Shown here: positions 9,969 through 24,120 of the stretch, piece by piece
Position numbering within the stretch: the stretch's first letter is position 1
Layout of the letters: every line of letters starts with the position of its first letter
Source of the DNA: Alphaproteobacteria bacterium
GTDB taxonomy: Bacteria > Pseudomonadota > Alphaproteobacteria > Rickettsiales > UBA3002
DNA: 26,034 bases
Direction of reading: 5' to 3'
NCBI GenBank assembly: GCA_021732545.1
Contig: JAKFUW010000234.1
Coordinates: forward strand, 1-26,034
Translations under genes and position numbers: made by a program
The notes under the pieces: generated by a model
The model's input: only the letters and a program-made list of their open reading frames with translations
Database searches by the model: none
Told to the model about the DNA's origin: nothing

Positions 9969-11070
9969 CCGCACGAATCTTTCTCTCGTTGGTCGCTGGT
10001 GGTGGACGGTGGACCGCCCGACATGGTTTGCATTACTGCTGCTGATGTGTGTGGGCGCGGTGATGGTGACGGCGGCAAGTCCCGCTGTGGCTGAGCGTCT
10101 GGGTTATGATTCATTTTATTTTGTGACGCGCCAGCATATCTTTTTGGCGATGTCGCTGGCGGTGATGTTTGGTGTTTCACTTTTAAGTGTGCCGCAAATT
10201 CGCAAAGTGGCGGTGGCGACATTTTTAGTCAGCCTGATATTTATGTTGCTGCTGCCTTTGATTGGATTTGAAAATAAAGGTGCCATTCGCTGGGTACGGA
10301 TTGCGGGGATCTCGCTGCAACCATCGGAGTTTTTAAAGCCTGTTTTTGCCGTGGTGATGGCGTGGATTTTTGCGGAAAAATATCAGTCGCGCACCTTCCC
10401 TGCATTTCGGATTGCGCTAGCTGTTTATGCGCTGGTGGTGGTGCTGCTGATTATGCAGCCCGATTTTGGGATGACGGTGGCGCTGACCTGCATGTTTGGA
10501 ATTCAGTTTTTTCTGGCAGGCATGCCGTTTGTGTGGGTAGCGGTGATGCTGGGGATGGGGTTGTTTGGCGTGATTGCGGCCTATTTCTTTTTGCCGCATG
10601 TGACGCAACGGATTGATCGATTTTTAGACCCGTCATCGGGCGATAATTATCAGGTCGAAAAATCACTAGAGGCGTTTAAAAATGGCGGGTTGTTGGGGCG
10701 GGGACCGGGTGAAGGGGAAATCAAACACATCATCCCCGATTCGCATACCGATTTTGTGTTCTCGGTGGTGGGCGAAGAATATGGCCTCATTGTGAGCTTG
10801 CTGGTGATCGGAATTTTTGCGTTTGTGGTGATGCGAGGGCTATTTCGGTTGATGCAAGAGCAAGATGTGTTTGTGATGATTGCAGCATCTGGGTTGCTCG
10901 CGCAATTTGGGATTCAGGCGATTATCAATATGGGCGTGGCGGTGAATTTGCTACCCGCCAAAGGCATGACGCTGCCATTTTTAAGTTACGGTGGGTCGTC
11001 ACTGATTTCGATGGCGCTGGCGATGGGCATGTTGCTTGCGCTCACCCGAAAGCGATATGGGATAAGATAG
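9958..11070 (+). CDS. ftsW: SEDS peptidoglycan polymerase FtsW
   Basis: GAIRWV, LQPSEFLKP, QPDFG, PDSHTDFVF, KGMTLPFLSYGGSS. Confidence 0.97.
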   Translation: MQFDRTNLSLVGRWWWTVDRPTWFALLLLMCVGAVMVTAASPAVAERLGYDSFYFVTRQHIFLAMSLAVMFGVSLLSVPQIRKVAVATFLVSLIFMLLLPLIGFENKGAIRWVRIAGISLQPSEFLKPVFAVVMAWIFAEKYQSRTFPAFRIALAVYALVVVLLIMQPDFGMTVALTCMFGIQFFLAGMPFVWVAVMLGMGLFGVIAAYFFLPHVTQRIDRFLDPSSGDNYQVEKSLEAFKNGGLLGRGPGEGEIKHIIPDSHTDFVFSVVGEEYGLIVSLLVIGIFAFVVMRGLFRLMQEQDVFVMIAASGLLAQFGIQAIINMGVAVNLLPAKGMTLPFLSYGGSSLISMALAMGMLLALTRKRYGIR

Positions 11071-11127
11071 TTGCCAGTTGCCAGTTTTCAGCTATGACTA
11101 ACGACTCGCAACTCGCAACTGGCAACT
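11069..11127. repeat. Inverted pair of 7-mer tandem arrays (AGTTGCC / GGCAACT type), ftsW-murG
   Basis: AGTTGCCAGTTGCCAGTT (11069-11086) versus AACTCGCAACTGGCAACT (11110-11127): 17/18 complementary. Fills the 61-nt gap and begins in the ftsW TAG. Confidence 0.9.
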
Positions 11128-11131
11128 CATC

Positions 11132-12229
11132 ATGACTATCCTTCTTGCATCAGGCGGCACTGGCGGCCATATCTTTCCCGCGCAAGCGTTGGCGGAAAGT
11201 TTGCTTGCGCAAAACATTTCTGTGGCGCTGATGACGGATCGCCGTTTTCATCACTATAATGAGGCGGCGCTGCAAGGGGTGTTTGGGCGCATTCCACTGC
11301 ATCATATTCATGCCGGAAATCTGAGCGGTAACCTCATTCAAAAACTCAAAGGTTCGCTTGCCTTAGTGCGAGGCATTATGCAAGCGCGGCGGATCATCAA
11401 ACGCATGAAGCCTGCATGCGTGGTTGGCTTTGGCGGGTATCCCTCGTTCCCCACATTGTTGGCGGCAACGATGCTAAACGTGCCGACCATTGTGCATGAA
11501 CAAAATTCGGTATTGGGGCGCACCAATCGCTGGTTGAGCCGCCGTGTGAGCCGCATTGCGACCACCTATGAAACCACCCAATTACTGCCTGAAAGTTGCA
11601 AACATAAAGCGGTGTGTGTTGGCAATCCGGTGCGTGCGGCGGTGTTGGCGTTGCGTGAATTACCGTATGTTGCGCCTGAGCAAGATGGTATTTTACGAGT
11701 GCTGATCACCGGCGGTAGCCAGGGTGCGCATGTGTTTAGCGCCGTGGTGCCCGAGGCCGTGAAGTTACTTCCCGAAGCGCTGCGCGTGCGCTTGCGGATT
11801 GAGCAGCAATGCCGTGCCGATGTGATGGATGCCACGCGCGCCGCTTATGCCGCCATGGGAATTCAGGCCGATCTTGCGCCGTTTTTTGCTGACATTCCGC
11901 AACGCCTTGCTTCGGCGCATTTAGTGATTGGCAGAGCAGGGGCATCGACCGTGGCGGAGTTATCGTGCGCTGGCAGACCCGCGCTTTTGGTGCCCTATCC
12001 TGCGGCGATGGACAACCACCAATATTATAATGCGCAAAGCGTGGCGGATGCGAATGCGGGCTGGGTGATGGTGCAAGATGGCTTCACGCCACAAGCGTTG
12101 GCTGCGCGGCTGGAAGCTTTGTTGCTGACTCCCGATACACTCACCCAAACGGCCGCGAACATGCGCGAGCTTGGCAAGCCCGATGCAGCGGATGCGTTGG
12201 CTCGGTTGGTTTTGGGTTCTAGGGGCTAG
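11132..12229 (+). CDS. murG: Glycosyltransferase MurG
   Basis: GGTGGHIFPA, GFGGYPS, HEQN, GNPVR, GGSQGA, RAGAST, HQYYNA. Confidence 0.97.
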   Translation: MTILLASGGTGGHIFPAQALAESLLAQNISVALMTDRRFHHYNEAALQGVFGRIPLHHIHAGNLSGNLIQKLKGSLALVRGIMQARRIIKRMKPACVVGFGGYPSFPTLLAATMLNVPTIVHEQNSVLGRTNRWLSRRVSRIATTYETTQLLPESCKHKAVCVGNPVRAAVLALRELPYVAPEQDGILRVLITGGSQGAHVFSAVVPEAVKLLPEALRVRLRIEQQCRADVMDATRAAYAAMGIQADLAPFFADIPQRLASAHLVIGRAGASTVAELSCAGRPALLVPYPAAMDNHQYYNAQSVADANAGWVMVQDGFTPQALAARLEALLLTPDTLTQTAANMRELGKPDAADALARLVLGSRG

Positions 12230-12326
12230 GTGCTAGGGGCTATAGAAGAAATACACAGGGTGGTTGCGTATTGCAGACGATAGCGTTAGATATATGACTA
12301 GCCCCTAACCCCTAGAGCCTGGCCCC
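12215..12326. repeat. Inverted pair of 7-mer tandem arrays (GGGGCTA / TAGCCCC type), murG-murC
   Basis: GGTTCTA GGGGCTA GGTGCTA GGGGCTA (12215-12242, contains the murG TAG) and TAGCCCC TAACCCC TAGAGCC TGGCCCC (12299-12326); murC ATG at 12329. Confidence 0.9.
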
Positions 12327-12328
12327 TT

Positions 12329-13810
12329 ATGAACACAACTACCATTCGATCTTTTCCCGTATCCAAAACCATGTCGCTCGATGTGGGCACATTGCATTTT
12401 GTGGGCATTGGTGGCATCGGTATGAGCGGCATTGCGGAGGTGCTGCACAATTTAGGATATACCGTGCAAGGCACCGATTTAAGCGAGAGTGCCACGGTGG
12501 AACGCTTGCGCGGTTTGGGCATGAAGGTGATGATCGGCCACGCGGCAGAGCACATTGCGGGGGCCAGCGCCATTGTGATTTCGTCTGCGGTCAAACCCAC
12601 TAACGCGGAAGTGATCGAGGCGCGCAATCAACGGATTCCGGTGTTGCGTAGAGCAGAAATGCTCGCCGAATTGATGCGCTTGAAAATGACCGTTTCCATC
12701 GCGGGAACCCACGGCAAAACCACCACCACGTCACTAGTGGCCGCGATGTTTGAAGCGGCAGGCCTCAACCCCACCGTCATCAATGGCGGCATCATCAACG
12801 CCTATGGCACCAACGCTGTGCTAGGCAAAGGCGAATGGATGGTGGTGGAAGCCGATGAATCCGACGGCACCTTCATCAAGATCCCCTCAACCATTGCGGT
12901 CGTCACCAACATCGACCCCGAACATCTCGATCATTATGGATCGTTCGATAATCTGCGCGCGGCGTTTAAGCAGTTCCTCGAGAATATTCCGTTTTATGGA
13001 TTTGGAGTGATGTGTCTGGATCATCCCGAAGTGCAAAATCTCGTTGCCAAAATCACCGATCGGCGCGTGATCACTTATGGCCTAAGCCCCCAAGCCGATG
13101 TGCGCGCGGTGAATGTAGCGCCACAGGGTAAAGTGCAGCGATTCGATGTGGAAATTATGGACCGCGTGACCGCAGAAATTCGCGTGATCAAAGGCGTGGA
13201 ACTGCCGATGCACGGCCAGCATAATGTGCTCAATGCGTTGGCTGCGGTCAGTGTGGCGATTGAGCTTGGCATGCCCGATGCTGCGATCATCAAAGGCTTC
13301 AAGAACTTTGGTGGCGTCAAGCGCCGCTTCACGCAAACGGGGCAGGTGGATGGCATCACCATCATTGATGATTATGGTCATCATCCGGTGGAAATTGCGG
13401 CGACATTATCGGCGGCGCGCGCAGCGGTAGCCGGCACGCAAGGCCGCGTGATTGCGGTGGTGCAACCGCATCGCTATTCGAGGCTTTCGAGTTTATTTGA
13501 AGGTTTTTGCACCTGCTGCAATGATGCGGATCTGGTGATTGTGGCACCGGTTTACACTGCGGGCGAAGAACCGATTGAAGGCATTCACAGCGAGGCGCTG
13601 GCGGAGGGTTTGCGAAACCATGGCCATAAGCAGGTGATGCTGCTCGAATCGGAACATGATCTGGCTGGCTTGATTGATGAACTGGCACTCCCTGATGATT
13701 ATGTGATTTGTTTGGGCGCAGGCAGCATCAGCAAATGGGCGAATGCATTGCCTGAGCAATTATCGAAAATACGAAGTCATGAAAATACGAAGTCACGAAA
13801 CGCATCATGA
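12329..13810 (+). CDS. murC: UDP-N-acetylmuramate--L-alanine ligase MurC
   Basis: [59 protein letters not shown]. Exact start uncertain (a later ATG is possible). Confidence 0.96.
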
Positions 13811-13839
13811 CGTCGTGCCTTCCTGACGTCGTGCCTTCG
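13764..13839. repeat. Inverted pair of 8/16-mer tandem arrays inside the murC end and murB start
   Basis: CGAAAATACGAAGTCA TGAAAATACGAAGTCA (13764-13795) and TGACGTCGTGCCTTCC TGACGTCGTGCCTTCG (13808-13839). CGAAGTCA complements TGACGTCG and TGCCTTCG with 1 mismatch each. Confidence 0.75.
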
Positions 13840-14787
13840 TCTCTTCCTGCTGTGCGCGGCAGTTACAGGGCGTCCGCTGATTTATCGGCTACCACTTGGT
13901 TTCGCGTGGGTGGTTGCGCAGAGATTTTATTCAAGCCTGCTGATGCGGAAGATCTTGCGCATTTTATCGCGCATAAATCAAGCGATGTGCCTGTTACGAT
14001 TTTAGGCGTGGGATCTAATGTAGTGGTACGCGATGGCGGGATTGATGGCGTGGTGATTCGCTTAGGACGAGGGTTCACACAGATGACGCTTTCCCCTCAC
14101 CCTAACCCTCTCCCGGGGGAGAGGGAAGCTGCGCGCAGCGCAGCGGGTGATGAGGTGTTAACGGTAGGCGCTGGTTGCTTGGACACCAATGTCGCAGAGT
14201 TTGCCGCGCAACGTCACGTGCAAGGGTTGGAATTTTTAAGTGGGATTCCAGGCACCATCGGCGGCGCACTAGCCATGAATGCGGGAGCTTACGGCGCTGA
14301 GATCAAAGATGTGTTAATAATGGCGCAAGCGGTCAGCCCTGCAGGGCAATTAGTGTGGCTGGATGCACACGAACTCGAATTTTCGTATCGCCATTGTGGA
14401 TTGCCACATGGGTGGATTTTTACCGCCGCAGTGCTGCGTGCACCACGCGGTGACGAGGCGACGATTCGCACACGAATGGCTACAATTGCTGCGGCTCGCG
14501 AATCGACACAGCCTACACGCGAGCGCACGGGTGGCAGCACGTTTAAAAACCCCACACTGCCCGATGGCACCACAAAAAAAGCGTGGGAGTTGATTGACGC
14601 GGCCGGCTGTCGTGGTATGATGATAGGAGCGGCGCAAGTGTCGCAGTTGCATTGCAACTTTTTGATCAATAATGGCGGCGCCACCGCAGACGAGATTGAA
14701 CGGCTCGGCGAAGAAGTTCGCGAAAAGGTGTTCGCAAACTCCGGCATCAGACTGGAGTGGGAAATAAAACGCATCGGCAAGAAGTAG
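13807..14787 (+). CDS. murB: UDP-N-acetylenolpyruvoylglucosamine reductase MurB, with an in-frame palindromic insertion
   Basis: [63 protein letters not shown]. Confidence 0.96.
14093..14155. repeat. BoxC-like palindromic element in frame within murB
   Basis: CCCTCACCCTAA-CCCTCTCCC/GGGAGAGGG hairpin (14106-14125), GCTGCGC/GCGCAGC hairpin (14128-14144), closing GGGTGA; encodes [18 protein letters not shown]. Confidence 0.85.
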
Positions 14788-14842
14788 TCTCCAGCGGCCA
14801 GTGGCCAGTATTCTGGGGACTGGCAACTGACGACTGGAGACT
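14786..14842. repeat. Inverted pair of 7-mer tandem arrays (AGTNNCC / GGNNACT type), murB-ddl
   Basis: AGTCTCC AGCGGCC AGTGGCC AGT from the murB TAG; GGGGACT GGCAACT GACGACT GGAGACT (14815-14842). Outer units AGTCTCC/GGAGACT pair perfectly. Confidence 0.88.
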
Positions 14843-14847
14843 GCCTG

Positions 14848-15747
14848 ATGCACATAGCCCTACTTAAAGGTGGAATTTCAACCGAGCGCGAGGTATCGCT
14901 CACCAGCGGTGCAGCGGTGGAAAAAGCCTTGCTGACATTGGGCTATAAGGTGAGCCCGATTGATGTGGGACACGATGTGGCAGCACAACTTTCCGCGCTC
15001 AAACCCGACGCAGCATTCAATGCGCTGCATGGTCGCTATGGCGAGGATGGCTGCATCCAAGGCATCTTAGAATATCTGAAAATTCCTTATACGCATTCGG
15101 GCGTGTTGGCCTCGGCTTTGGCGATGGATAAACCGATGGCCAAACATATCTTTGCGCAAAGCGGTTTGCGCTGCGCAGCAGGCGACGTGTTCACGAAAGC
15201 GCAGATGCTAAGCGGCGATCCGATGCCACGACCTTATGTGGTGAAACCATTGAATGAAGGTTCCAGCGTTGGGGTCACGATTGTGCATGAGCATGACAAT
15301 TTTTTCTTCGATGCGACTAACTGGCATTTTGGCGAGGCGGTGCTGGTCGAGACCTATATTGCAGGGCGCGAAATTCAAGTGGCGGTGCTGGATAATGAGG
15401 CACTCGGCGCGATTGAGGTTAAACCGCTCAGTGGTTTTTATGATTATGAAGCCAAATATACAGATGGAAAAGCGCTGCACCTCATGCCCGCGCCGATTGA
15501 TAAAGCGCGCTATGATGAGGTGTGCGAACTGGGCTTACGTGCGCATCAAGCGCTCGGGTGCCGAGGACTTACACGATCAGATTTTCGTTTCAATGAAGGC
15601 GGCGACAATCAGTTTTACATTCTGGAAACCAATACGCAACCAGGCATGACGCCGCTGTCGCTCTCGCCCGAAATTGCCGCGCATCGCGGTATCAGTTTTG
15701 AGCAATTGATAGAGCGACTGGTGAAGGGGGCGCGGCTGGATGGCTAA
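14848..15747 (+). CDS. ddl: D-alanine--D-alanine ligase
   Basis: GGISTEREVSL, NALHGRYGEDG, PYTHSG, AMDK, VKPLNEGSSVG, FYDYEAKY, LETNTQPGMT. Confidence 0.97.
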   Translation: MHIALLKGGISTEREVSLTSGAAVEKALLTLGYKVSPIDVGHDVAAQLSALKPDAAFNALHGRYGEDGCIQGILEYLKIPYTHSGVLASALAMDKPMAKHIFAQSGLRCAAGDVFTKAQMLSGDPMPRPYVVKPLNEGSSVGVTIVHEHDNFFFDATNWHFGEAVLVETYIAGREIQVAVLDNEALGAIEVKPLSGFYDYEAKYTDGKALHLMPAPIDKARYDEVCELGLRAHQALGCRGLTRSDFRFNEGGDNQFYILETNTQPGMTPLSLSPEIAAHRGISFEQLIERLVKGARLDG

Positions 15748-16684
15748 AATTGGAAGTGCCATTGCCCCTTGTTCCCAGCTGATGGCGCAGCGTAAGATGT
15801 CGCATGATGACGATGAACTGCCGATGAAATGGGAAGAAGATTGTGTGGCGATCAGTCGCCAGAAAGCGCGACATCGCGCGCGCGCGGGCTGGAAGCGCCG
15901 TGTGATGCTGATTGCGATGGTGATGATTCCTACTTATGTGGGTTTGGGTGGCTGGTGGGTGTGGACGCAAAACTCCGCGCAAGTTTTTTCTAAATCCGTC
16001 ACAAACTGGGTGCTGGGCATCACCGCCGATGCAGGGTTTAAAGTGCAGCATATTGAGGTTGCGGGCCTTAAAAATCTGCGCCCCGAATGGGTGCTGGATG
16101 CGGCGAACATCCGCATCGGTGATCCGATTTTTAGCGTGTCGGTAGCCGCATTGTGGAAGAACATTCAAGCGCTCCCCGAAGTGCGCAGCGTGCAAATTGA
16201 GCGCGATCTGCCCGACACATTGCGGCTGGTGGTGACCGAGCGCGAGGCGGTAGCGCGGTGGCAATATCAGGGCCGTCAGCAGTGGATGGACCGCGATGGA
16301 ACGCTGCTCGCCAATCAGCAGCACGCGGCCACAGATGGCGATATGGTGCTGGTGGGTAAAGATGTGCCCGCGCATGCGGAGCGTTTTTTGAAGCTGATGG
16401 AAACCACGCCTGCGCTCAAAGAAAAAATTGTTTCTGCGGTGCGTGTGGGTAATCGTCGCTGGGATGTAGCGTTTGATAATGGTTTGGTGGTAAAGCTTCC
16501 AGCAAGCAATATGGCAGCTGCATGGAAAAAATTTGCGGCGCTGGTGGAGAATGAAAAACTGATGGATCGTGATATCAACATGGTGGATTTGCGCATTGAA
16601 GGTCGCGTCTTTTTAACGCTGAATCCGCAACCCGATGCATTGAAAATGATGCCGCTGACATTGACATCAGAGTCACCGCAATGA
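15740..16684 (+). CDS. ftsQ: Cell division protein FtsQ
   Basis: Single TM, POTRA-like segment (ALPEVRSVQIERDLPDTLRLVVTERE), RVGNRRWD, VDLR; between ddl and ftsA. Start uncertain. Confidence 0.92.
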   Translation: MAKIGSAIAPCSQLMAQRKMSHDDDELPMKWEEDCVAISRQKARHRARAGWKRRVMLIAMVMIPTYVGLGGWWVWTQNSAQVFSKSVTNWVLGITADAGFKVQHIEVAGLKNLRPEWVLDAANIRIGDPIFSVSVAALWKNIQALPEVRSVQIERDLPDTLRLVVTEREAVARWQYQGRQQWMDRDGTLLANQQHAATDGDMVLVGKDVPAHAERFLKLMETTPALKEKIVSAVRVGNRRWDVAFDNGLVVKLPASNMAAAWKKFAALVENEKLMDRDINMVDLRIEGRVFLTLNPQPDALKMMPLTLTSESPQ

Positions 16685-17955
16685 TGAGCAATTCTCTGAT
16701 GATGCATGAAGCGATTCGCGGTAAACATGGCAGCTTTGCGATGCTCGATATTGGCACGACGAAAGTGGTGTGTTTCATCGGCCATTTAACCGCCGACGGT
16801 GTGCAGATTAATGGCGTGGGGCATCAGCTGTGCAAGGGTATGAAATCGGGCGCGATCACCGATGTGGGCGGCGTGGAAGCCTCCATTTTGGCAGCGGTGC
16901 ATGCCGCGGAACAAATGGCGGGCGAGCCGATTGAAAATGTGATGGTGAGCGTGAATGGCGTGAGCCTGAAATCGCGTAGCGTATCGATTGAACTTGAAGT
17001 GGCAGGCGATGCTGCGCACGATCACGATATTGTCGATTTAATTCACGAAGGATGCGCGAGCTTAGAAGATGAATCGCATACGATTTTGCATGCGTTTCCC
17101 ATTCAATATTATCTGGATGCGACCAAGGGATTGTCCGATCCGCGCGGGATGGCAGGGCATGTGCTGGGCACCGAACTTCATGTGGTGACGGCCAATAATA
17201 TCTTCCTCAAAAACATCACCAACTGCGTGGCGCGCTGTCATTTAAACATCGATGGTTATGTGATGGCGTCGCACGCTTCGGCGTTGGCGTGTTTAACTGA
17301 GGATGAACGCGAGCTGGGCGTGACGCTGATTGATATGGGCGGCGGGGTCACGAGTTTTTCGGTGTTTGCAGGTGGCAAAAATATTTTCTCCGATGCGATT
17401 CCTGTTGGTGGCAAACATGTCTCTAATGACATTGCGCGCGGCCTTTCCACCACGCTGATTCATGCCGAGCGTTTGAAGACCATTCATGGCAGCGCGATTG
17501 GTTCGGTCAAAGATGCCGAGGTGATGATTGAAGTGCCGCAACTGGGCGAAGAAGATGAAGACGAAGCAGCACTCATGCCGCGCTCGCATCTGGTGGGCGT
17601 GGTGCGCCCGCGCATGGAAGAAATCTTTGAGATGGTGCGAAGCAAACTCGAAGCCGCAGGAGTCGACCGCGCAGCAGGCAGACGCTGTGTGCTCACCGGT
17701 GGCGGCAGCCAGATGATCGGTGTCACCGATTTAGCCTCGCGCATGCTCAGCAAACAAGTACGCAAAGGCCGCCCGATCGAAATTCCAGGGCTTGCTGAAA
17801 TGGCAAGCGGCCCATCGTTCGCCACCGCCATCGGCATGGTGCAATTTTTAACACACCAACCGTGGGAAGAATCCCTGCTGCACGATGCGCATTATGGCCA
17901 CCGCTTCATCCGCATGACCGACCGCGTGAAGCAGTGGTTTAGGCGGAATGTTTAG
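16681..17955 (+). CDS. ftsA: Cell division protein FtsA
   Basis: LDIGTTKV, DPRGMAG, LIDMGGGVT, PVGGKHVSNDIA, AERLK, LTGGGSQ, FATAIG, C-terminal WFRRNV amphipathic tail. Confidence 0.97.
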   Translation: MMSNSLMMHEAIRGKHGSFAMLDIGTTKVVCFIGHLTADGVQINGVGHQLCKGMKSGAITDVGGVEASILAAVHAAEQMAGEPIENVMVSVNGVSLKSRSVSIELEVAGDAAHDHDIVDLIHEGCASLEDESHTILHAFPIQYYLDATKGLSDPRGMAGHVLGTELHVVTANNIFLKNITNCVARCHLNIDGYVMASHASALACLTEDERELGVTLIDMGGGVTSFSVFAGGKNIFSDAIPVGGKHVSNDIARGLSTTLIHAERLKTIHGSAIGSVKDAEVMIEVPQLGEEDEDEAALMPRSHLVGVVRPRMEEIFEMVRSKLEAAGVDRAAGRRCVLTGGGSQMIGVTDLASRMLSKQVRKGRPIEIPGLAEMASGPSFATAIGMVQFLTHQPWEESLLHDAHYGHRFIRMTDRVKQWFRRNV

Positions 17956-18041
17956 GGGTAGGGGCGAGGGATGAGGGGCTAGGAGAGTTCACCTCTCCCA
18001 CTGGGAGAGGTAAAGTCACATCCCTCGCCCCTCGTCCCCCC
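17953..18041. repeat. 7-mer inverted arrays (AGGGGCG/AGGGATG type) enclosing a BoxC-like hairpin after ftsA
   Basis: AGGGGCGAGGGATG (17960-17973) pairs perfectly with CATCCCTCGCCCCT (18019-18032); internal ACCTCTCCC-ACT-GGGAGAGGT (17991-18011). Confidence 0.88.
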
Positions 18042-18097
18042 AATAACAATCCTTGTTATTCGTTCAAAATTCTGTTTATAATAGAACAAATTGGAGG
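18042..18097 (+). promoter_or_regulatory. Promoter, operator palindrome and RBS of the parDE module
   Basis: Perfect IR AATAACAA-TCC-TTGTTATT (18042-18060); TTGTTA (18053-18058), 18 nt, TATAAT (18077-18082); GGAGG at 18093-18097. Confidence 0.65.
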
Positions 18098-18103
18098 ATG
18101 CCC

Positions 18104-18370
18104 ATGAACATATCGATTACACCTGAACTTGAGCAATTTGTGCATGCGAAAGTGAAAAGCGGGATGTATAATTCGGCGAGCGAGCTCATCCGCGAGGCAT
18201 TGCGATTGCTTGCCGAGCGCGATGAACTGCACACACGCCGCATCGCCGCCATGGACGCCTTCTTGCAAGAGGGCATTGATTCCGCAGCAAATGGAGACCA
18301 TGTGACGCCGGAGGAATTATGGGCGGAATTGGATGAGATCATTCGTGAAGCAGAACAAAAACATGGCTAA
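18104..18370 (+). CDS. parD: Type II antitoxin, ParD family (ribbon-helix-helix)
   Basis: MNISITPELEQFVHAKVKSGMYNSASELIREALRLL; acidic C-terminus; overlaps the toxin start. Start set at ATG 18104, 6 nt after GGAGG. Confidence 0.88.
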   Translation: MNISITPELEQFVHAKVKSGMYNSASELIREALRLLAERDELHTRRIAAMDAFLQEGIDSAANGDHVTPEELWAELDEIIREAEQKHG

Positions 18371-18665
18371 GCGTTATATTATATCTACTCAAGCGCGTGC
18401 CGATATTGCTGCCATAACGCGCTATATTTCTGCGGATAATCCTGCGGCCGCCCGAAAAATGAAATTGGCGATGATGCAGGCATGTGAAAAGCTTGGCAAA
18501 CACCCATATATGGGGCAGGAGCGCGAAGACGTGACGTCTCAACCGCTGCGCTTCTGGCCAGTCCATTCCAACTATATGATTGTTTATGATCCAGCGACCA
18601 ATCTGGTGATGATCGTGCGCATCTATCACAGTGCGCGCTTCACGGCGATGCTCGTGCCGCAGTAG
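18363..18665 (+). CDS. parE: Type II toxin, RelE/ParE superfamily
   Basis: ARADIAAITRYISADNPAAA, LGKHPYMGQER, YMIVY, IVRIYHSAR; 100 aa, downstream of the antitoxin. Confidence 0.88.
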   Translation: MAKRYIISTQARADIAAITRYISADNPAAARKMKLAMMQACEKLGKHPYMGQEREDVTSQPLRFWPVHSNYMIVYDPATNLVMIVRIYHSARFTAMLVPQ

Positions 18666-18773
18666 GGTGAGAGATGAGGGGCTAGGTTTTAGATTGGTGA
18701 ACCAGATACCGGTATTGCTGCGCAAACCGGTATGACAGCTTTCACTCGACTCTCGACTCTAACTCCTCACCCC
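18663..18773. repeat. Degenerate 7-mer inverted arrays with a central hairpin after parE
   Basis: Left TAGGGTGAGAGATGAGGGGCTAGG; right ACTCGACTCTCGACTCTAACTCCTCACCCC. GGGTGAG (18665-18671) pairs with CTCACCC (18766-18772). Central ATACCGGT..TTGC/GCAA..ACCGGTAT stem (18706-18733). Confidence 0.7.
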
Positions 18774-18858
18774 ATTTTCCCCGTCCTTGTGCACAACTTC
18801 CAAAATCGGGTTGAAGCGCGTCAGAATGCGGCAAACGCGCATCCACAAGGCCGATTAG

Positions 18859-18915
18859 GTCATCAAGCGACCCTTTTGATTTAGAAAAACTGGATTCCCC
18901 CTGCGCGGGAATCAC
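18859..18915. repeat. Decayed copy of the CGTC-tagged dRS3-like element
   Basis: CTGGATTCCCCCTGCGCGGGAATCAC (18890-18915) resembles CTGGATTCCCGCTTTCGCGGGAATGAC (22230-22256); eroded left half starts GTCATC at 18859. Confidence 0.6.
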
Positions 18916-18944
18916 GCGTCACCCATGAAAAAACTTTGCAAGCG

Positions 18945-18960
18945 TTAACGCTTTTTTAAC
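18945..18960. promoter_or_regulatory. CtrA consensus box upstream of carD
   Basis: TTAA-CGCTTTT-TTAAC is an exact TTAA-N7-TTAAC match. It overlaps the palindrome AAGCGTTAACGCTT (18940-18953). Confidence 0.6.
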
Positions 18961-19104
18961 GATTTATTCGCCGCCCTATCATTTTGTAGTTTTTTTTACC
19001 CTAATTTTGTGTTATAACCCTGATCTCTCTTGATGAGAGCAATCACCTTTTTTAGTGATCGACAGCACCTAAGTTCGGTGCGGGGATGTTTTAACTTTGT
19101 TGCC

Positions 19105-19113
19105 TGTGGATAA
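19105..19113. promoter_or_regulatory. Perfect DnaA box upstream of carD
   Basis: TGTGGATAA, the reverse complement of TTATCCACA, 37 nt before the carD ATG. Confidence 0.5.
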
Positions 19114-19150
19114 CTTCCGGCATGCAACGCAACTTTTCGAAGGGTCGACT

Positions 19151-19651
19151 ATGGCAAAAGCAGTATTTAAGGTTGGCGAATATGTTGTATACCCTACGCA
19201 TGGCGTGGGCAAAATCACCGCAAAGGAAGTCGAAACCATCGGTGAGTTTGAATTGAACGTGTTTGTCATCAATTTTGAAAAAGACAAAATGACCCTGCGC
19301 GTTCCTGTAAACCGCGCTGAAGCAGCGGGCTTGCGTTCGGTATCAGGCGAAGGCGAAGTGAAAAAAGCACTCACCACCCTCAAAGGCCGCGCGCGCACCT
19401 CGCGTGGGATGTGGAGCCGCCGTGCTCAGGAATATGAAGCCAAGATCAATTCTGGCTGCATTATTTCGGTGGCCGAAGTGGTTCGTGATCTGCATAAAAA
19501 TGTCGATCAATCAGAGCGTTCCTATTCTGAGCGCATGATTTACGAGACCGCGATGAACCGTCTGGTGGGCGAAGTGGCGGCATCAGAGAAAACCGATAGC
19601 ATGAAAGCGCACGAAAAACTCATCCGCGCGTTGAAAAAACAAGCGGCATAA
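19151..19651 (+). CDS. carD: CarD/CdnL family RNA-polymerase-binding regulator
   Basis: FKVGEYVVYPTHGVGKI, MTLRVP, WSRRAQEYEAKINSG, AEVVRDL, SYSERMIYE. Start at ATG 19151 (GAAGGG upstream). Confidence 0.95.
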   Translation: MAKAVFKVGEYVVYPTHGVGKITAKEVETIGEFELNVFVINFEKDKMTLRVPVNRAEAAGLRSVSGEGEVKKALTTLKGRARTSRGMWSRRAQEYEAKINSGCIISVAEVVRDLHKNVDQSERSYSERMIYETAMNRLVGEVAASEKTDSMKAHEKLIRALKKQAA

Positions 19652-19672
19652 AACCAATACCTCTTTGTTGTT

Positions 19673-19711
19673 AAAAAAAACCGGCCCAGTGCAAATTGGG
19701 TCGGTTTTTTT
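19673..19711. terminator. Bidirectional intrinsic terminator after carD
   Basis: A8-CCGGCCCA-loop-TGGGTCGG-T7. Confidence 0.85.
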
Positions 19712-19715
19712 GTGG

Positions 19716-19764
19716 TTGAAATTGCGACACAATTAAGGTAAGGTAAAAGTATAAAAAGTAAGGA
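19716..19764 (+). promoter_or_regulatory. Putative promoter and RBS of the vapBC-type module
   Basis: TTGAAA (19716-19721), 17 nt, TAAGGT (19739-19744); repeated TAAGG; TAAGGA 6 nt before ATG 19771. Confidence 0.5.
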
Positions 19765-19770
19765 ATTCGC

Positions 19771-20031
19771 ATGCATTCGACCATTACCAGCAAAGGCCAG
19801 ATTACGCTACCTGCCGCGTTGAGGAAAAACCTGCAACTCAAACAGGGTGATATTGTGAATTTTGTGCCACTGCCTGACGGAAATTATCGGCTTGAGGCGA
19901 ATAGAAAAATTCCCATCACGGCGTTGAGGGGGATATTTGCTGTGTCAGGCCCTATCTTGAGTGTTGAGCAGATGAAGGATGCCATCATGGAAGCGGTGAA
20001 TGAAGATTATCATCGCTCCATTCAACCATGA
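19771..20031 (+). CDS. AbrB/MazE/SpoVT-fold antitoxin (VapB-type)
   Basis: STITSKGQITLPAALRKNLQLKQGD signature; ATGA overlap with the PIN gene. Confidence 0.9.
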   Translation: MHSTITSKGQITLPAALRKNLQLKQGDIVNFVPLPDGNYRLEANRKIPITALRGIFAVSGPILSVEQMKDAIMEAVNEDYHRSIQP

Positions 20032-20429
20032 TCGCGGTCGATACGAATATTCTGGTGAGGTATATTGTTCAGCTTGATGAGCCGTACACCAAAGTTGCCG
20101 ATCACTTTTTTGATACGTCAATCGCTCAACATAGGTCGATTTTCATTTCGCTGCTGGTATTGTGCGAAGTGGTCTGGGTACTGGGTCGTAGCTATGGATT
20201 TTCTCGAAAGCAGCTCGTGACAATCGTTGAAATGTTAAAAACTTCCGAGCATATCATTCTAGAGAATCCCGATATTGTAACGCTGGCGTTGGAGGATTTT
20301 CGTAGTAAAAAAGCAGGCTTTTCAGATTACATCATGCTGCATATCGCCGAAAGACATCGAGCCTTACCGCTTTACACCTTCGATCAAGCCCTTGCCGATC
20401 ATCCGATGGCGGTGCTGCTGGTGAAGTGA
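20028..20429 (+). CDS. vapC: PIN-domain toxin, VapC family
   Basis: MIAVDTNILVRY, LCEVVWVL, FSDY, YTFDQ: the four acidic PIN positions appear present. Confidence 0.9.
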   Translation: MIAVDTNILVRYIVQLDEPYTKVADHFFDTSIAQHRSIFISLLVLCEVVWVLGRSYGFSRKQLVTIVEMLKTSEHIILENPDIVTLALEDFRSKKAGFSDYIMLHIAERHRALPLYTFDQALADHPMAVLLVK

Positions 20430-20435
20430 AAAAGC

Positions 20436-21236
20436 CTAAACCCTTCTCTCCAGCATCAGTTTTTTAATTTCCGAAATCGCCTTGGCGGGGTTGAGGCCTT
20501 TAGGACAGGTTTTCGCGCAATTCATGATGGTGTGGCAGCGATAGAGGCGGAAGGGGTCTTCGAGGTTATCGAGGCGATCTCCCGTCATTTCGTCGCGGCT
20601 ATCCACAATCCAGCGGTACGCTTGCAGCAAAATCGCAGGGCCAAGATAGCGGTCCGAATTCCACCAATAGCTCGGGCACGAGGTGGAGCAACAGGCGCAT
20701 AAAATGCACTCATATAAACCATCCATTTTCTCGCGGTCCTCGGGCGATTGCAGGCGCTCCGAGTTGCTGGGCGGCGCGCTTTGGGTCTGCATCCAGGGTT
20801 GAATCGATTCATATTGCGCGTAAAAATGGCTCAAGTCTGGCACAAGGTCTTTGATGACAGGCATGTGCGGCAGCGGATAGATTTTGATGTCGCCTTTCAC
20901 ATCGCCAATCGCTTTGGTGCAGGCCAGTGTGTTGGTGCCATCAATATTCATCGCGCATGAGCCGCAAATGCCCTCGCGGCACGAACGGCGAAAGGTCAGG
21001 GTGGAGTCCATTTCATCTTTGATTTTGATGATAGCATCAAGCACCATCGGGCCGCAGCTATCCATATCCACTTCATAGCTATCGAGGGTAGGATTTTCAG
21101 CGTTACCAGCAGCATCCACGTGCTCAGGATTCCAGCGATAGACCTTGAAGGTTTTCAGATTTTTCGTGCCCGCAGGGGCGGCGTAATGGCGGCCTTTTTC
21201 AACCTTGGAATTTTTGGGTAGCGTAAATTCGGCCAT
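20436..21236 (-). CDS. sdhB: Succinate dehydrogenase iron-sulfur subunit
   Basis: [50 protein letters not shown]; GAGGA RBS. Confidence 0.98.
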
Positions 21237-21253
21237 AATGTCCTCTTTAGTGG

Positions 21254-21407
21254 TTAGAGTCGAGAGTCGTGAGTCGAGTAGCGCTTTGAGAGCGTTGTAA
21301 AATAATGTCCAAGGCCTTTGTATTTGTCATTCCGGCCTTCGCTGGGATCACAACATAGCAAGCTGGCTATGCACAGACCTTACTTTTTACTCGACTCTCG
21401 ACTCTAA
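21254..21407. repeat. Inverted pair of 7-mer arrays (GAGAGTC / GACTCTC type) between the M48 gene and sdhB
   Basis: TTAGAGTCGAGAGTCG (21254-21269) is perfectly complementary to CGACTCTCGACTCTAA (21392-21407). The latter contains the M48 TAG. 21389-21407 is identical to 18744-18762 (19 nt). Confidence 0.9.
21326..21349. repeat. Half copy of the CGTC-tagged element
   Basis: GTCATTCCGGCCTTCGCTGGGATC; hairpin ATTCCGGC-CTTC-GCTGGGAT, related to 22191-22217. Confidence 0.7.
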
Positions 21408-22300
21408 TCACTTTTTCTAATGTTAGGCAGCAGGCGCTGCTTGCCTGCTTTTTTCTGTTCAATTTCGGCAATGGTTTTGTTCATGGTTACAAAGCGCTCA
21501 GGCGTTGTCGGGTGGGTAGTGCGCGTATAGATTCCCTGCTTATTCACCTTCGCCATCTGACGCCAAAACTGCGGCGCATCTTCCACTTTGAATCCGGCAC
21601 GCGCAACGATATAAAGCCCGATATAATCGGCTTCATTTTCAAATTCGGGCGAATAGGATAGCAGCGCCGTTTGCGCACCTATTTTGCCGATTTGGCCTTG
21701 CGTGTTGATGCCTTGAGATGATGCCAATGCATCGAGCAGTGTGCCAAGCAACGCACCGCCCACCACGTTATTTTGCGTCGATTGCACATGCCGCATCATG
21801 TGGTGGCTATATTCATGCGCTAAGATAAAGGCGAGTTGATTATCGTTTTTGGCGAATTCAACCATATCAGCATTCATCACAATTTGCGTTCCGTCCGCAT
21901 GCGCGTTCAGGCCTTTACTTTTCGTTGAAAGTATTACCCTCATGTCGCAGTTGGCCTGAGATCCGTTGAGTTCACGGCACAGTTTGGTGGCTTCTGGTGC
22001 TAACTTATCAATCACACCTTTGAGTCGATCGCGCATCGCACTAATATCATCTTGGGTAAAAGATTTACCTTCATATTGCGACGTCACTTGCGCGTCTGCC
22101 ATATAGGATTGTTGCTGGCGTTCCTGCGCGATTTCAGCTTGCGAGGCGTGCGGTGTCATGGCGGTGGGTTTGGCACAGGCAGCCAGTAATGTCATCCCAG
22201 CGAAGGCTGGGATCCAGAACAAGCGAAAACTGGATTCCCGCTTTCGCGGGAATGACGATCGAACTGGCAACTGGCAACTGGCAACTGACAACTTCATCAT
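21404..22300 (-). CDS. M48 family zinc metallopeptidase, predicted lipoprotein
   Basis: NAHADG, LAFILAHEYSHH (HExxH), YSPEFENEADYIG, THP; lipobox LAA-C at residue 42. ATG 22300 overlaps the sdhA stop (TGATG). Confidence 0.85.
   Translation of the reverse strand: MMKLSVASCQLPVRSSFPRKRESSFRLFWIPAFAGMTLLAACAKPTAMTPHASQAEIAQERQQQSYMADAQVTSQYEGKSFTQDDISAMRDRLKGVIDKLAPEATKLCRELNGSQANCDMRVILSTKSKGLNAHADGTQIVMNADMVEFAKNDNQLAFILAHEYSHHMMRHVQSTQNNVVGGALLGTLLDALASSQGINTQGQIGKIGAQTALLSYSPEFENEADYIGLYIVARAGFKVEDAPQFWRQMAKVNKQGIYTRTTHPTTPERFVTMNKTIAEIEQKKAGKQRLLPNIRKSD
22191..22256. repeat. CGTC-tagged dRS3/RPE-like dimer palindrome, in frame in the M48 gene
   Basis: GTCATCCCAGCGAAGGCTGGGATCCAG + 12 nt + CTGGATTCCCGCTTTCGCGGGAATGAC. 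Two 8-bp hairpins; the right half fits ATTCCC-N8-GGGAAT (Neisseria dRS3 consensus). 66 nt. Confidence 0.9.
22262..22293. repeat. 7-mer tandem array (AACTGGC)3 AACTGAC AACT
   Basis: Same unit as at ftsW-murG. Begins 6 nt after the sdhA stop on the - strand and is read in frame as LSVASCQLPV. Confidence 0.92.
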
Positions 22301-24120
22301 CAATAAACCCTTTTCTTAGGCGGAAACACGTCCACATCGTCGGTCAGCGTTTCCATATGAACGGGGCGGTAATTGAGAGTGGTGCTGCCATCGGCGTCCA
22401 ACCAACAAATGGTGTGTTTCATCCAATGAGTATCGTCGCGCTCAGGGTGGTCTTCTTGCGAGTGTGCGCCACGGCTTTCCTTGCGGTTGAGCGCCGAATG
22501 CAGCGTGATGGACGATTGCGCACGTAAATTATCGAGTTCGAGTGCTTCGACCAGATCGCTGTTCCACACCAACCCGTGATCGTTGATTTTAAGATCGTTG
22601 AACGATTGATACACCGCATCAATTTTTTTGCAGCCTTCTTTGAGCGATTCATCGGTGCGAAACACCGCCGCGTGGTCTTGCATCACACGCTGCATGGTGC
22701 GGCGGATTTCAGAGGTGGGCGTTTTGCCGGATGCGTAACGGATATTATCGAAGCGCGACAAGGCTTGTTCGGTAGAATGAGCAGGGGCTTTGGCGTGCGC
22801 GCCACCGGGCTTGACCAGCTCGCGCGCGCGGTGCGCAGCGGCACGGCCAAACACCACCAGATCGAGCAGTGAGTTAGAACCTAAACGGTTGGCGCCATGC
22901 ACCGAAACGCATCCGGCTTCGCCGATTGCCATCAGGCCTGGCACCACGGTGTCGGGGTCGCCTTTGTGGAGTGTCACCACCTCGCCATGATAGTTAGTAG
23001 GAATACCACCCATATTGTAATGCACCGTGGGCAGCACCGGAATGGGTTGCTTGGTGACATCAACACCTGCAAAGATTTTCGCGGTTTCCGAGATTCCGGG
23101 TAAACGCGCGTGCAACACATCGGGATCCAAATGATCGAGGTGTAAAAAGATGTGGTCTTTATTCGCGCCAACGCCACGCCCTTCGCGGATTTCCATCGTC
23201 ATCGAGCGGCTGACGACATCGCGTGATGCGAGATCTTTTGCAGAAGGTGCATAGCGCTCCATGAAGCGCTCGCCTTCGGAATTGACCAAATATCCGCCTT
23301 CACCGCGTGCGCCTTCGGTAATCAGGCAGCCCGCGCCATAGACGCCCGTGGGGTGAAACTGCACAAATTCCATATCTTGCAGCGGAATGCCCGCGCGAAC
23401 GGCCATGCCGCCGCCATCGCCCGTGCAAGTGTGGGCGCTTGTTGCGGAAAAATATGCGCGGCCATAACCACCCGTTGCCATCACCGTTTGCTGGCCATAA
23501 AAGCGATGCATCGAGCCATAGTCGAGGTTCATCGCGAGCACGCCGCAACATTGGCCATCATCGGTCATCAGCAAATCAATCGCGAAATATTCGATGAAAA
23601 ATTTGGCCTGATGTTTGAGCGCCTGAGTATAAAGCGTGTGCAAAATGGCGTGGCCGGTGCGATCAGCTGCAGCACAAGTGCGAACCGCGGTGCCTTCGCC
23701 ATAGCGCGTGGTCATGCCGCCGAAAGGCCGCTGATAAATCTTGCCTTCCTCGGTGCGCGAAAAAGGCACGCCATAATGTTCGAGTTCAATCACTGCCGCC
23801 ATCGCGTTTTTGCACATATATTCAATGGCGTCTTGATCGCCCAACCAGTCGGAGCCTTTGATGGTATCATACATGTGCCAGCGCCAGTCATCTTCGCCCA
23901 TATTGCCCAGTGCCGCCGAAATGCCGCCTTGAGCAGCCACCGTGTGCGAGCGCGTGGGAAATACTTTGGAAATACACGCAGTGGATAGGCCTTGCTCGGC
24001 CATGCCAAAGGTCGCGCGTAAACCAGCGCCACCCGCACCCACCACAATCACATCATAATGATGGTCGGTCATAGCGTAGGCTTTGGTGATGGAAGGGGCT
24101 GAAGTGGTAGGCGATGCCAT
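22300..24120 (-). CDS. sdhA: Succinate dehydrogenase flavoprotein subunit
   Basis: [62 protein letters not shown]. Start at ATG 24120 (AGGAG 10 nt upstream). Confidence 0.98.

Follow-up and report, generated by a model that had tools for sequence, protein, structure and literature searches.

The period-7 repeat arrays that lie at gene junctions in the window, meaning the whole 26,034-nucleotide stretch of DNA analysed here, are on balance probably the two arms of small insertion elements that fold into hairpins and belong to the heptanucleotide-repeat class of bacteria (STRR/long simple sequence repeats/Xanthomonas-type). The element arrives whole, as arm, unique loop and arm, and lands at the junction of co-transcribed and often translationally coupled genes, within the final few codons of the preceding gene. 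From the left arm that gene then gains a different C-terminal end together with a TAG stop codon, and the right arm terminates a few bases ahead of the next start codon. The element is inherited afterwards, with arms that gain or lose whole 7-nt units, and orthologous junctions differ in units on both arms.

Heptamer arrays within the window

The host of the window is an uncultured drinking-water alphaproteobacterium, and sequence matching the window was found only in DNA contigs of two drinking-water metagenomes. The junctions concerned lie among cell-wall, cell-division and succinate-dehydrogenase genes, the names of which are backed by Pfam. An earlier note on this DNA had described period-7 arrays at seven junctions, six of them as inverted pairs; the arrays were confirmed at all seven by Tandem Repeats Finder and direct sequence reading. 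Five of the six pairs are strong, with RNA folds compared with 200 shuffles giving z-scores of -3.1 to -6.3, whereas the parE-carD pair is only weak, and the seventh array, at sdhA-M48, is single-armed.

At the ftsW-murG junction, Tandem Repeats Finder placed arrays at 11069-11086 and 11104-11128, corresponding to a hairpin on the plus strand (11069..11128; z -6.0) in which the left arm, AGTTGCC repeated 2.6 times, has its first AG within the ftsW TAG stop, the loop is 17 nt, and the right arm (ACTCGCA ACTCGCA ACTGGCA ACT) ends 4 nt 5' of the murG ATG. The murG-murC hairpin (12215..12326, plus strand; z -3.1; array at 12219-12242) has a left arm of TAGGGGC TAGGTGC TAGGGGC, the first unit of which holds the murG TAG stop, a loop of ~55 nt and a right arm of TAGCCCC TAACCCC TAGAGCC TGGCCCC that ends 2 nt 5' of the murC ATG; an inverted-repeat search scored its arms as 22 nt and 86% complementary. 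Between murB and ddl, arrays at 14791-14809 and 14813-14843 belong to a plus-strand hairpin (14785..14843; z -4.5) with (T)AGTCTCC AGCGGCC AGTGGCC AGT on the left, ACTGGCA ACTGACG ACTGGAG ACT on the right, and the murB TAG stop as its left edge. The ftsA-parD hairpin (17953..18040, plus strand; z -6.1) has the arms TAGGGG TAGGGGC GAGGGAT GAGGGGC TAGG and ATCCCTC GCCCCTC GTCCCC, which are 100% complementary over 14 nt (17960-17973 / 18019-18032); the ftsA TAG stop forms its first left-arm unit, and its loop contains a small hairpin of its own.

The locus downstream of parE (18663..18775, plus strand; z -1.9) is mixed. Its first part, TAGGGTGAGAGATGAGGGGCTAGG, repeats the left arm of the ftsA locus in direct orientation, has the parE TAG stop at its start and is 22/24 identical to 17959-17985, and the locus ends with the right arm of another family, CTCGACT repeated 2.3 times (array at 18745-18760); no inverted repeat of at least 10 nt was returned for it by the inverted-repeat search. 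On the minus strand, the M48-sdhB element is 164 nt in length (21249..21412; z -6.3; arrays at 21256-21278 and 21390-21405) and reads AGTGATT AGAGTCG AGAGTCG ... CGACTCT CGACTCT AACCACT, with arms of 21 nt that are 95% complementary (21249-21269 / 21392-21412). The M48 TAG stop (21404-21406) and the last three M48 codons are inside this element. The single-armed sdhA-M48 array (22262..22296, minus strand; z -0.2; 22262-22293 by Tandem Repeats Finder) consists of AGTTGTC, three copies of AGTTGCC and AGTT, directly 3' of the sdhA stop.

Genome-wide period, placement and polarity

Exact runs with a 7-nt period and a length of 16 nt or more numbered 125 across the genome, as against 12 for period 8, 36 for period 6 and 1-36 across the comparison periods from 4 to 12. 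Under a single mismatch rule, the genome-wide scan that the earlier note had proposed returned 160 period-7 arrays, compared with 8-34 for any one of the other periods between 5 and 11. The arrays are not randomly placed with respect to genes: by a rough gene model built on ORFs, their density is 308/Mb in intergenic and 45/Mb in coding DNA, with arrays of other periods at 3-40/Mb. Over-representation of 7-nt repeats and a preference for intergenic DNA, the two features of the heptanucleotide-repeat class, are thus both present. Stops of 34 genes fall within 12 nt of an array start, and TAG is the stop codon in 21 of them, compared with 25% genome-wide (odds ratio 5, p 6e-6).

The proposal that right arms follow the left arms with which they are paired holds across the genome, since adjacent arrays match as inverted units (at least 6/7) in 20 of 39 cases (51%) compared with 9% of random pairs; 29 array pairs have an inverted unit match of at least 5/7. 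Similarly, the AG every 7 nt that had been noticed on left arms, with CT on right arms, can be sharpened to AGT and ACT, which were found in 103 of the 160 units. Polarity is fixed as 5'-(AGTNNNN)n...(NNNNACT)n-3', AGT being on the left and ACT on the right in 23 pairs and the other way round in one. The units were claimed to be locus-specific, and do vary between loci, but not purely so, given that AGTTGCC-type units account for 41 of 251 exact runs; the most frequent units genome-wide are AACTGGC, ACTCTCG, AACTCGC and AACGACT. A shared architecture is therefore evident, as had been suggested, but the AGT/ACT sequence core and a dominant unit are shared as well.

Filled and empty junctions in relatives

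Junctions were compared with those of relatives whose proteins are 79-88% identical. The 164 nt at the M48-sdhB site are represented by an empty site, consisting of TAG, 5 nt and ATG, in L215 (79%) and L220 (86%). Conversely, murD and ftsW overlap in the window genome and in L212, and are separated in L211 by a 126-nt hairpin spacer, with which the end of MurD changes from ALVNQHA(I/V) to ALVGEVVK. No clear target-site duplication was observed at these two filled sites. The suggestion that the arms are generated locally consequently stands only in part: whole hairpins, including the loop, arrive as insertions, and it is the number of units that subsequently shifts in 7-nt steps.

Inheritance is apparent at the ftsW-murG junction, where the orthologous hairpins of L211 and L212 differ by indels of 7-nt units and the hairpin is kept across relatives with 83-88% identical MurG. 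All four hairpin-bearing ftsW-murG junctions in the family have a TAG stop at the array edge; most family members are without hairpins at this junction and at murG-murC. Orthologues had been proposed as a place to look for compensatory change, and the outcome was divided. At murG-murC in L211 (MurG 88% identical) both arms have changed, to TAGTGCC/GGCACTA from the TAGGGGC/GCCCCTA of the window genome, but compensatory double changes were absent among the three ftsW-murG orthologues. The arms in relatives also include quite different units, such as TAGGGTT, CGGGAAG and AGGATTC.

Association with S23p genes

Both genes of the window genome for S23p (PF05635), an Avd-like four-helix-bundle protein, C20 and C90, are flanked by inverted 7-8-mers, with AGTTATC and TAACTGA bracketing the C20 cassette, and all 12 of the S23p genes in relatives are array-bracketed and co-directional within housekeeping operons. 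The carA-carB junction holds a gene-less hairpin in the window genome (units AGTCGCC/AGTTGCC) and an S23p cassette in three genera, the latter with AGTTCAG units. Since the same arms bracket S23p genes, the gene-less hairpins have the build of S23p intervening-sequence cassettes minus the gene. None of the seven window loci holds an S23p ORF. Moreover, the loops showed no similarity to each other or to sequence elsewhere in the genome and contain no S23p remnants, with an HMM of 14 S23p proteins run over all intergenic DNA returning only C20 and C90; descent of the gene-less hairpins from S23p cassettes is therefore unsupported.

A co-occurring enzyme had been put forward as something to search for across genomes. 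In the 80%-complete assembly neither RVT_1 nor Y1 transposase (PF01797) was matched, and these searches accordingly revealed no insertion enzyme. The S23p genes are flanked by housekeeping genes, and assignment to a diversity-generating retroelement, in which S23p would be the Avd-like component, was rejected because no reverse transcriptase lies beside the Avd-like gene. S23p itself does co-occur with arrays: among 250 alphaproteobacteria drawn evenly class-wide, with array richness scored by proxy, 6 of 11 S23p-positive genomes were array-rich as opposed to 9 of 239 S23p-negative genomes (odds ratio 31, p 6e-6). Exceptions are three array-rich genomes in which no small S23p was found, and two with S23p and no arrays by the proxy used.

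In Coxiella, the intervening sequence of 23S rRNA contains tandem GACAGAT heptamers, with a copy number that varies between strains, and the 5' cut by RNase III is at the first heptamer repeat (Warrier et al. 2016, PMC4990558). Like the S23p intervening sequences of Coxiella burnetii and Leptospira, the present elements have terminal inverted repeats and a stem with tandem heptamers, and the Coxiella-type build, in which the S23p ORF lies in the loop right after the 5'-stem heptamers, is also that of the two S23p cassettes of the window genome and the 12 in relatives. The loci differ from these intervening sequences in lying between protein genes of operons as opposed to in helix 25 or 45 of 23S rRNA, and in that the seven within the window carry no S23p gene. 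The window loci are all between protein-coding genes. No 23S gene is present in the assembly, and one complete and two partial 23S genes of relatives have no inserts. RNase III is encoded at C142.

Known repeats and alternative explanations

The closest described repeats are not of the S23p type alone. The intergenic heptamers GGGAATC of Xanthomonas (GGGGAYT in Nostoc) include 70-75 Xanthomonas cases of convergent array pairs in which a stem-loop is possible, mostly between aligned ORFs and very near the upstream stop codon or overlapping with it. The majority of the Xanthomonas repeats are transcribed, and paired arrays are few in Nostoc (Rehm et al. 2015, PMC4692102). About 90% of the Xanthomonas repeats are intergenic, and the window genome resembles them in having tandem heptamer arrays in convergent pairs, between aligned ORFs and at or overlapping the upstream stop. 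Xanthomonas has a single G-rich unit per genome, read as quadruplex-forming, with increased local genomic stability reported (PMC4692102), whereas the window genome has many units with an AGT/ACT core; its dominant units, AGTTGCC, AGAGTCG and AGTCGTT, lack G-tracts, and only a minority of units are G-rich, in the window those of the murG-murC and ftsA loci alone. Rehm et al. mention neither S23p nor polymorphic insertions (PMC4692102). The earlier note knew of no such family in alphaproteobacterial dcw operons, but families of this kind are on record, in the form of the Xanthomonas pairs (PMC4692102) and the Coxiella S23p heptamers (PMC4990558).

Heterocystous cyanobacteria, whose STRR heptamers reportedly have the units CCCCAGT, TTGGTCA and CAACAGT (Mazel et al. 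1990), are a further point of resemblance: in them, as in the window genome, 7-nt tandem arrays lie between genes and one genome contains several unit families. Written in the present phase, STRR1 and STRR3 become AGTCCCC and AGTCAAC, and hence share the AGT core. The window genome is, however, alphaproteobacterial and has other units, and this core alone is held in common with the canonical STRR units.

The alternative that survives best, although unlikely, is that the hairpins constitute a host-beneficial RNA structure code, in that selection maintains them between cistrons as sites of processing or stabilisation, and they fix the proportions of an operon's proteins. The models for this are the REP/BIME hairpins of E. 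coli and, in phage T7, the sites for RNase III that separate early genes. REP/BIME sequences occur with RAYT transposases in enterobacteria and pseudomonads, REP being a conserved 20-40-nt sequence as opposed to tandem heptamers. The present hairpins resemble them as short extragenic palindromes between operon genes that may be able to stabilise or punctuate mRNA; REP/REPIN-RAYT membership itself was rejected, the units being tandem heptamers and PF01797 unmatched in the 80%-complete assembly. The stems are stable and without T-runs, and spacers between co-directional genes contain 73 of the 93 intergenic arrays (0.52 per kb, compared with 0.23-0.27 in convergent or divergent spacers), which, together with conservation of the ftsW-murG hairpin and transcription of most Xanthomonas repeats (Rehm et al., PMC4692102), favours such a code. 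However, sense and antisense stability are equal (10 vs 10), as are G.U pairs (50 vs 56), giving no strand asymmetry and hence no signal of RNA-specific selection, and stem formation does not need a fixed AGT/ACT polarity. Junctions that are filled or empty in close relatives, and hairpins missing from most family members at ftsW-murG and murG-murC, are unexpected for a required regulatory site.

Less likely still is that the arrays are periodic DNA or RNA binding sites for a protein that reads AGTNNNN every 7 nt and affects downstream translation, candidates being S23p and S1/Csp/CsrA-type factors. The latter have been proposed for the TAACTGA direct repeats of marine Beggiatoaceae, some Cyanobacteria and Bacteroidetes, for which translational regulation was suggested; in Beggiatoa this single unit forms 169 direct sets and one inverted set (MacGregor 2015, PMC4679880). 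These repeats lie just 5' of start codons where ribosome-binding sites are rare, and the right arms examined here likewise finish 4-26 nt before start codons, with several downstream genes, murG and murC among them, having no Shine-Dalgarno sequence. Reverse-complemented and set in the present phase, TAACTGA becomes AGTTATC, and this exact pair brackets the C20 S23p cassette. The trinucleotide at a fixed phase, its strict polarity, the S23p association and the reporter effects of heptamer deletion in a Nostoc preprint (10.1101/2022.06.06.494920) also fit binding sites, but 57 of the 160 units lack AGT, the arms of relatives use quite different units, and the two arms would show opposite strands to an RNA-binding protein.

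Pure replication slippage, by which long simple repeats without mobility or function persist where harmless, is improbable as a full account. In many bacteria no long simple repeats are as over-represented as those with heptanucleotide units, and 7-nt indels do occur between orthologues; a slippage origin was proposed by Mrazek et al. 2007, as relayed in PMC4679880. Slippage nevertheless leaves unexplained the inverted matching partners, the 23:1 polarity, the arrival of 164 nt, unique loop included, in a spacer of 5 nt, the TAG bias and the S23p association. Least probable of all are classical miniature inverted-repeat transposable elements that a transposase from another locus mobilises. In their favour, the elements terminate in inverted repeats, relatives differ in whether a site is filled, and three GAGAGTC-family copies (C1, C86 and C99) share the outer unit AGTGGTT/AGTGATT. 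Against them, the loops are dissimilar, the arms vary from copy to copy, the two filled sites have no clear target-site duplication, and Y1, the only transposase family screened, is unmatched in the 80%-complete assembly.

Proposed fate and implications of the insertions

If the arrays are the arms of hairpin insertion elements, stems of 15-30 bp would be transcribed within the operon mRNA and, by analogy with the S23p intervening sequences of 23S rRNA, could feasibly be substrates for RNase III. The insert would then be cut out or cut through with the flanking cistrons remaining functional, which would explain why inserts are tolerated in essential operons. In the authors' view the elements are perhaps selfish or near-neutral passengers as opposed to a host-designed code. 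It can be suggested more tentatively that gene-less heptamer hairpins and S23p cassettes form one element family that colonises operon stop/start junctions across many phyla, with the Avd-like S23p as the family's own factor for maintenance, spread or arm homogenisation, and RNase III removing the elements from mRNA as from 23S rRNA.

To our knowledge, no function or origin proposed for heptanucleotide repeats has gained acceptance since 1990. The repeat class is already known yet unexplained, and the bracketing of S23p genes by the same arms provides a testable lead to its origin; the tie, which is both statistical and structural, gives experiments a specific protein to address and, in RNase III, a specific enzyme. 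Were hairpins and S23p cassettes to prove one family, the STRR/heptanucleotide-repeat and rRNA intervening-sequence puzzles would have a single answer.

In essential operons (dcw, sdh), the arrays behave as inserted hairpin units that rewrite the final codons and stop codon of the upstream gene and uncouple overlapping genes. At a practical level, the repeats interrupt assemblies made from short reads, displace the predicted starts and ends of genes, and inflate the share of TAG among stop codons, which is 25% here. Arrays are also translatable, as the sdhA-M48 array, read in frame, makes up residues 3-13 of the called M48 lipoprotein precursor, at the N-terminus and ahead of the signal peptide. 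A palindromic repeat of another family (22199-22258) comes after this array.

Genomic context

The alphaproteobacterial genome containing the window originates from drinking-water metagenomes and comprises 1.68 Mb in 291 contigs at 80% completeness, with the window representing all of contig C1. No representative of the same genus is present among species genomes. An exact-protein look-up of MurG returned no identical protein on record, its identity to MurG of other genera of the family is at most 63%, and the best match to FtsA (59% identity) is from a 'Rickettsiales bacterium' MAG. Logan contigs obtained by homology search were employed as close relatives. The gene names assigned in the earlier note were borne out by Pfam, which supports ftsW, murG, murC, murB, ddl and ftsA, a parD/parE pair, carD and a MazE-like/PIN pair, together with sdhB, an M48 peptidase gene, sdhA and sdhD/C on the minus strand. 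There is no ftsZ after ftsA, the dcw cluster stopping at this point.

Heptamer arrays and hairpins

Period-7 arrays were detected with Tandem Repeats Finder, and read directly, at every junction where the earlier note had placed them. Five of the six inverted pairs described there are clear when folding is scored against 200 shuffles, namely those at ftsW-murG (z -6.0), murG-murC (z -3.1; arms of 22 nt, 86% matched), murB-ddl (z -4.5), ftsA-parD (z -6.1; perfect 14-nt arms) and M48-sdhB (z -6.3; 21-nt arms, 95% matched). The sixth, after parE, is weak (z -1.9), lacks an inverted repeat of at least 10 nt, and appears to combine left and right arms from two different families. The sdhA-M48 array is single-armed, as had been stated. 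Rfam searches of the window at gathering thresholds revealed no families.

A hairpin absent from the original list lies between murC and murB (13764-13838; z -3.4), and is built like those at other junctions but with a 16-nt period. Here, GAAAATACGAAGTCAT (2.3 copies) and TGACGTCGTGCCTTCC (1.9 copies), which are mutually inverted, are located 5' and 3', respectively, of the ATGA stop/start overlap, and both are translated, forming the MurC tail and the MurB N-terminus. Additionally, the same left arm is found in direct orientation on either side of the parD/parE toxin-antitoxin pair (17953-17985 and 18663-18688; 22 of 24 positions identical), a module that apparently either inserted into a heptamer hairpin or arrived along with one.

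Analysis of the whole genome revealed 125 exact runs of at least 16 nt with period 7, compared with 12 with period 8 and 36 with period 6. Under one scoring rule, 160 period-7 arrays were identified, their density being 308 per Mb between genes and 45 per Mb within coding sequence, each other period from 5 to 11 being present at 3-40 per Mb. An ACT/AGT trinucleotide occurs in 103 of the 160 consensus units. Left and right arms do track each other: of 39 cases in which arrays are separated by less than 400 nt, 20 are inverted partners with units matching at six or more of seven positions, as opposed to 9% of random pairs, and direct matches between such neighbours are not enriched. In 23 pairs the 5' arm is of the form AGTNNNN and the 3' arm of the form NNNNACT, the order being reversed in one; since a stem could form without this near-invariant polarity, something presumably reads the sequence besides the structure. 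The proposal that units are locus-specific holds insofar as they differ between loci, but not purely so, the AGTTGCC type being dominant (41 of 251 exact runs). A three-unit GCCAGTT run is present in contigs of many phyla.

The arrays are not random relative to genes, being approximately twice as dense in co-directional spacers as in convergent or divergent spacers. In 34 genes the stop codon is 12 nt or less from where an array begins; TAG accounts for 21 of these stops, as opposed to 25% of those in the genome as a whole (odds ratio 5, p = 6e-6). In the window, the terminal TAG of ftsW, murG, murB, ftsA, parE and the M48 gene is in every case inside or abutting the first unit. Right arms finish 4-26 nt ahead of the next start codon.

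Insertion and inheritance of hairpins

Comparison of filled and empty junctions indicates how the hairpins sit on gene ends. The M48-sdhB junction is empty in two relatives (M48 79% and 86% identical), in which CAAGAAGGATAG is separated from the ATG by the 5-nt spacer TTTGT. In the present genome a 164-nt element (21249-21412) occupies this junction, the C-terminal residues of the M48 protein have changed from QEG to KSD, and the left arm contributes a new TAG. Similarly, murD and ftsW overlap in this genome and in one relative. In the relative whose MurG is 88% identical, they are separated by a hairpin spacer of 126 nt with arms of the GTGAAGT type, the MurD tail has changed from ALVNQHA(I/V) to ALVGEVVK, and the terminal TAG is within the arm. 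The heptamer hairpins are therefore insertions: at both sites a translationally coupled junction has been split, its last codons overwritten and a stop codon provided by the element. No convincing target-site duplication was found at either filled site, a possible AAA at M48-sdhB being too short to count.

Hairpins are inherited after insertion, and then drift. The three close lineages all have the ftsW-murG hairpin; its loop (TTTTCAGCTAT) is recognisably common to them, arm lengths vary by whole units, and the present genome has a 7-nt indel adjoining the loop. The murG-murC hairpin of the relative whose MurG is 88% identical has TAGTGCC/GGCACTA arms in place of TAGGGGC/GCCCCTA: either the two arms have altered in concert, or a second insertion has displaced the first. 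In genera of the family that are further removed, 3 of 12 ftsW-murG loci have hairpins with TAGGGTT, TAGGGTG or TAGGTTT units, the rest being plain spacers. The TAGGGTT/AACCCTA arms (ftsW-murG of genome G023, locus L192, and locus L204) correspond to (TTTAGGG)n and match the telomere repeat of plant type exactly, probably by coincidence.

Association with S23p genes

The genome has two PF05635 (S23p) genes, both bracketed by repeats. The first follows a ribonucleotide reductase gene and lies between AGTTATC... and ...TAACTGA arrays, with a second small ORF 3' of S23p within the same arm pair (contig C20, 6992-7627). The second (contig C90, 3348-3662) is between a serC-like gene and serA, flanked by ATCGTTA and TAACGCNN 7-8-mers. 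Inverted arrays with cassette-specific units were present on both sides of the S23p gene in all 12 examples examined in relatives, each gene being co-directional within a housekeeping operon (carA-carB three times, serC-serA, ilvH-ilvC, iscS-iscU, cysH-cysD, ahpC-trxB, nuoC-nuoD and others). The three carA-carB S23p proteins are mutual best matches (56-66%) with a nearly constant unit, AGTTCAG/AGTTCGG, indicating that cassettes are inherited across genera. The present genome has at carA-carB a hairpin without a gene, the units of which differ from those of the S23p cassettes there. Its ilvH-ilvC and iscS-iscU junctions, which carry S23p cassettes in relatives, have inserts of 400-480 nt with small unannotated ORFs and without heptamer arms (C50, 4990-5470; C34, 4080-4480).

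When 250 genomes were sampled evenly from the alphaproteobacteria, 6 of the 11 with PF05635 were array-rich compared with 9 of 239 without (odds ratio 31, p = 6e-6), array-rich being defined, with a cut-off set after seeing the data, as at least 10 matches of the AGT-phase pattern or its reversed control; at a cut-off of 5 the odds ratio is 24. This proxy detects some units only, and the association has exceptions in both directions. Among solved structures, the closest to S23p is that of XCC0516 (2gsc, E = 4e-24) from Xanthomonas campestris, a species known for heptamer repeats. No S23p remnants or similarity were found in hairpin loops.

A second PF05635 class, scoring 53-75 bits in open frames of 270-340 aa, occurs about once per genome in the family (relatives G008-G024; e.g. 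G012, C1:850119-850418), and has the appearance of a larger conserved protein that contains an Avd-like domain and differs from the S23p genes, in which a domain of roughly 105 aa occupies open frames of 120-207 aa.

Nature of the elements

By a slight balance of probability, the hairpins are intervening-sequence-like, heptamer-armed insertion elements that are tolerated at operon junctions. The Coxiella intervening sequence is described as having a 28-bp terminal stem and a strain-variable number of tandem GACAGAT heptamers directly upstream of S23p, with the 5' RNase III cut at the first repeat (Warrier et al. 2016, PMC4990558); by analogy, the present hairpins might also be processed by RNase III. 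Xanthomonas GGGAATC arrays are reported as approximately 90% intergenic and for the most part transcribed; the majority are between aligned ORFs, where they adjoin or overlap the stop codon of the upstream ORF, and 70-75 are convergent pairs able to form stem-loops (Rehm et al. 2015, PMC4692102). TAACTGA repeats have been described ahead of start codons (MacGregor 2015, PMC4679880), and a Nostoc preprint describes effects of heptamer deletions on a reporter (10.1101/2022.06.06.494920). Intergenic hairpins tied to S23p do not feature in the portions of these four sources drawn upon here. To these, the present genome adds two filled/empty site pairs, the TAG statistics, the 23:1 polarity and the class-wide S23p association.

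The earlier note, the observations of which are upheld, had read the arrays as an RNA-structure code or as arms generated locally, and this interpretation is supported only in part. The compensatory change anticipated across orthologous junctions was not seen, with double changes in 0 of 24 pairs among three ftsW-murG orthologues, and strand asymmetry gave no sign of selection at the RNA level, the sense strand folding more stably than the antisense in 10 out of 20 hairpins (G.U pairs 50 versus 56). REPIN/RAYT and retroelement readings were rejected, as neither a Y1 transposase nor a reverse transcriptase gene was found in this 80%-complete assembly. Loops are unique, with no similarity to one another or to the rest of the genome except for a nested palindromic repeat. 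The 23S rRNA gene is missing from the assembly, and no intervening sequence was present in the complete 23S of relative G031 or the partial 23S of G018 and G008. Intrinsic terminators were dismissed by eye, the stems having no T-run behind them.

Palindromic repeats and assembly breaks

A second repeat family consists of palindromes of type CATTCCCGCGAAAGCGGGAATC, with 31 genome matches at up to four mismatches. Copies in the window are at 22199-22258, 21320-21350 and about 18885-18915, one being nested within the loop of the M48-sdhB element, and resembling palindromes occur in murG-murC spacers of relatives. The AGTTGCC array and a palindromic repeat together encode the N-terminus of the M48 lipoprotein precursor (22180-22303, minus strand). 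In the relative whose M48 is 86% identical, a plain signal peptide, MNIQKLFLVAGLLLLTAC, occupies this position, and the lipobox cysteine is conserved. Repeats that inserted here seem to have been co-opted as a secretion signal.

Repeats are probably responsible for much of the break-up of the assembly into 291 contigs. At approximately 5x depth, contigs of the source metagenomes spanned two hairpins without indels and others stop at arrays; in Logan records X1 and X2 of these metagenomes, contigs end at 14790 and 22254 (X1) and at 18667 (X2), and another X2 contig starts at 22263. Near-identical hairpins, differing by one base and with identical flanks, are found near a contig start (C151, 23-74) and a contig end (C71, 7028-7079).
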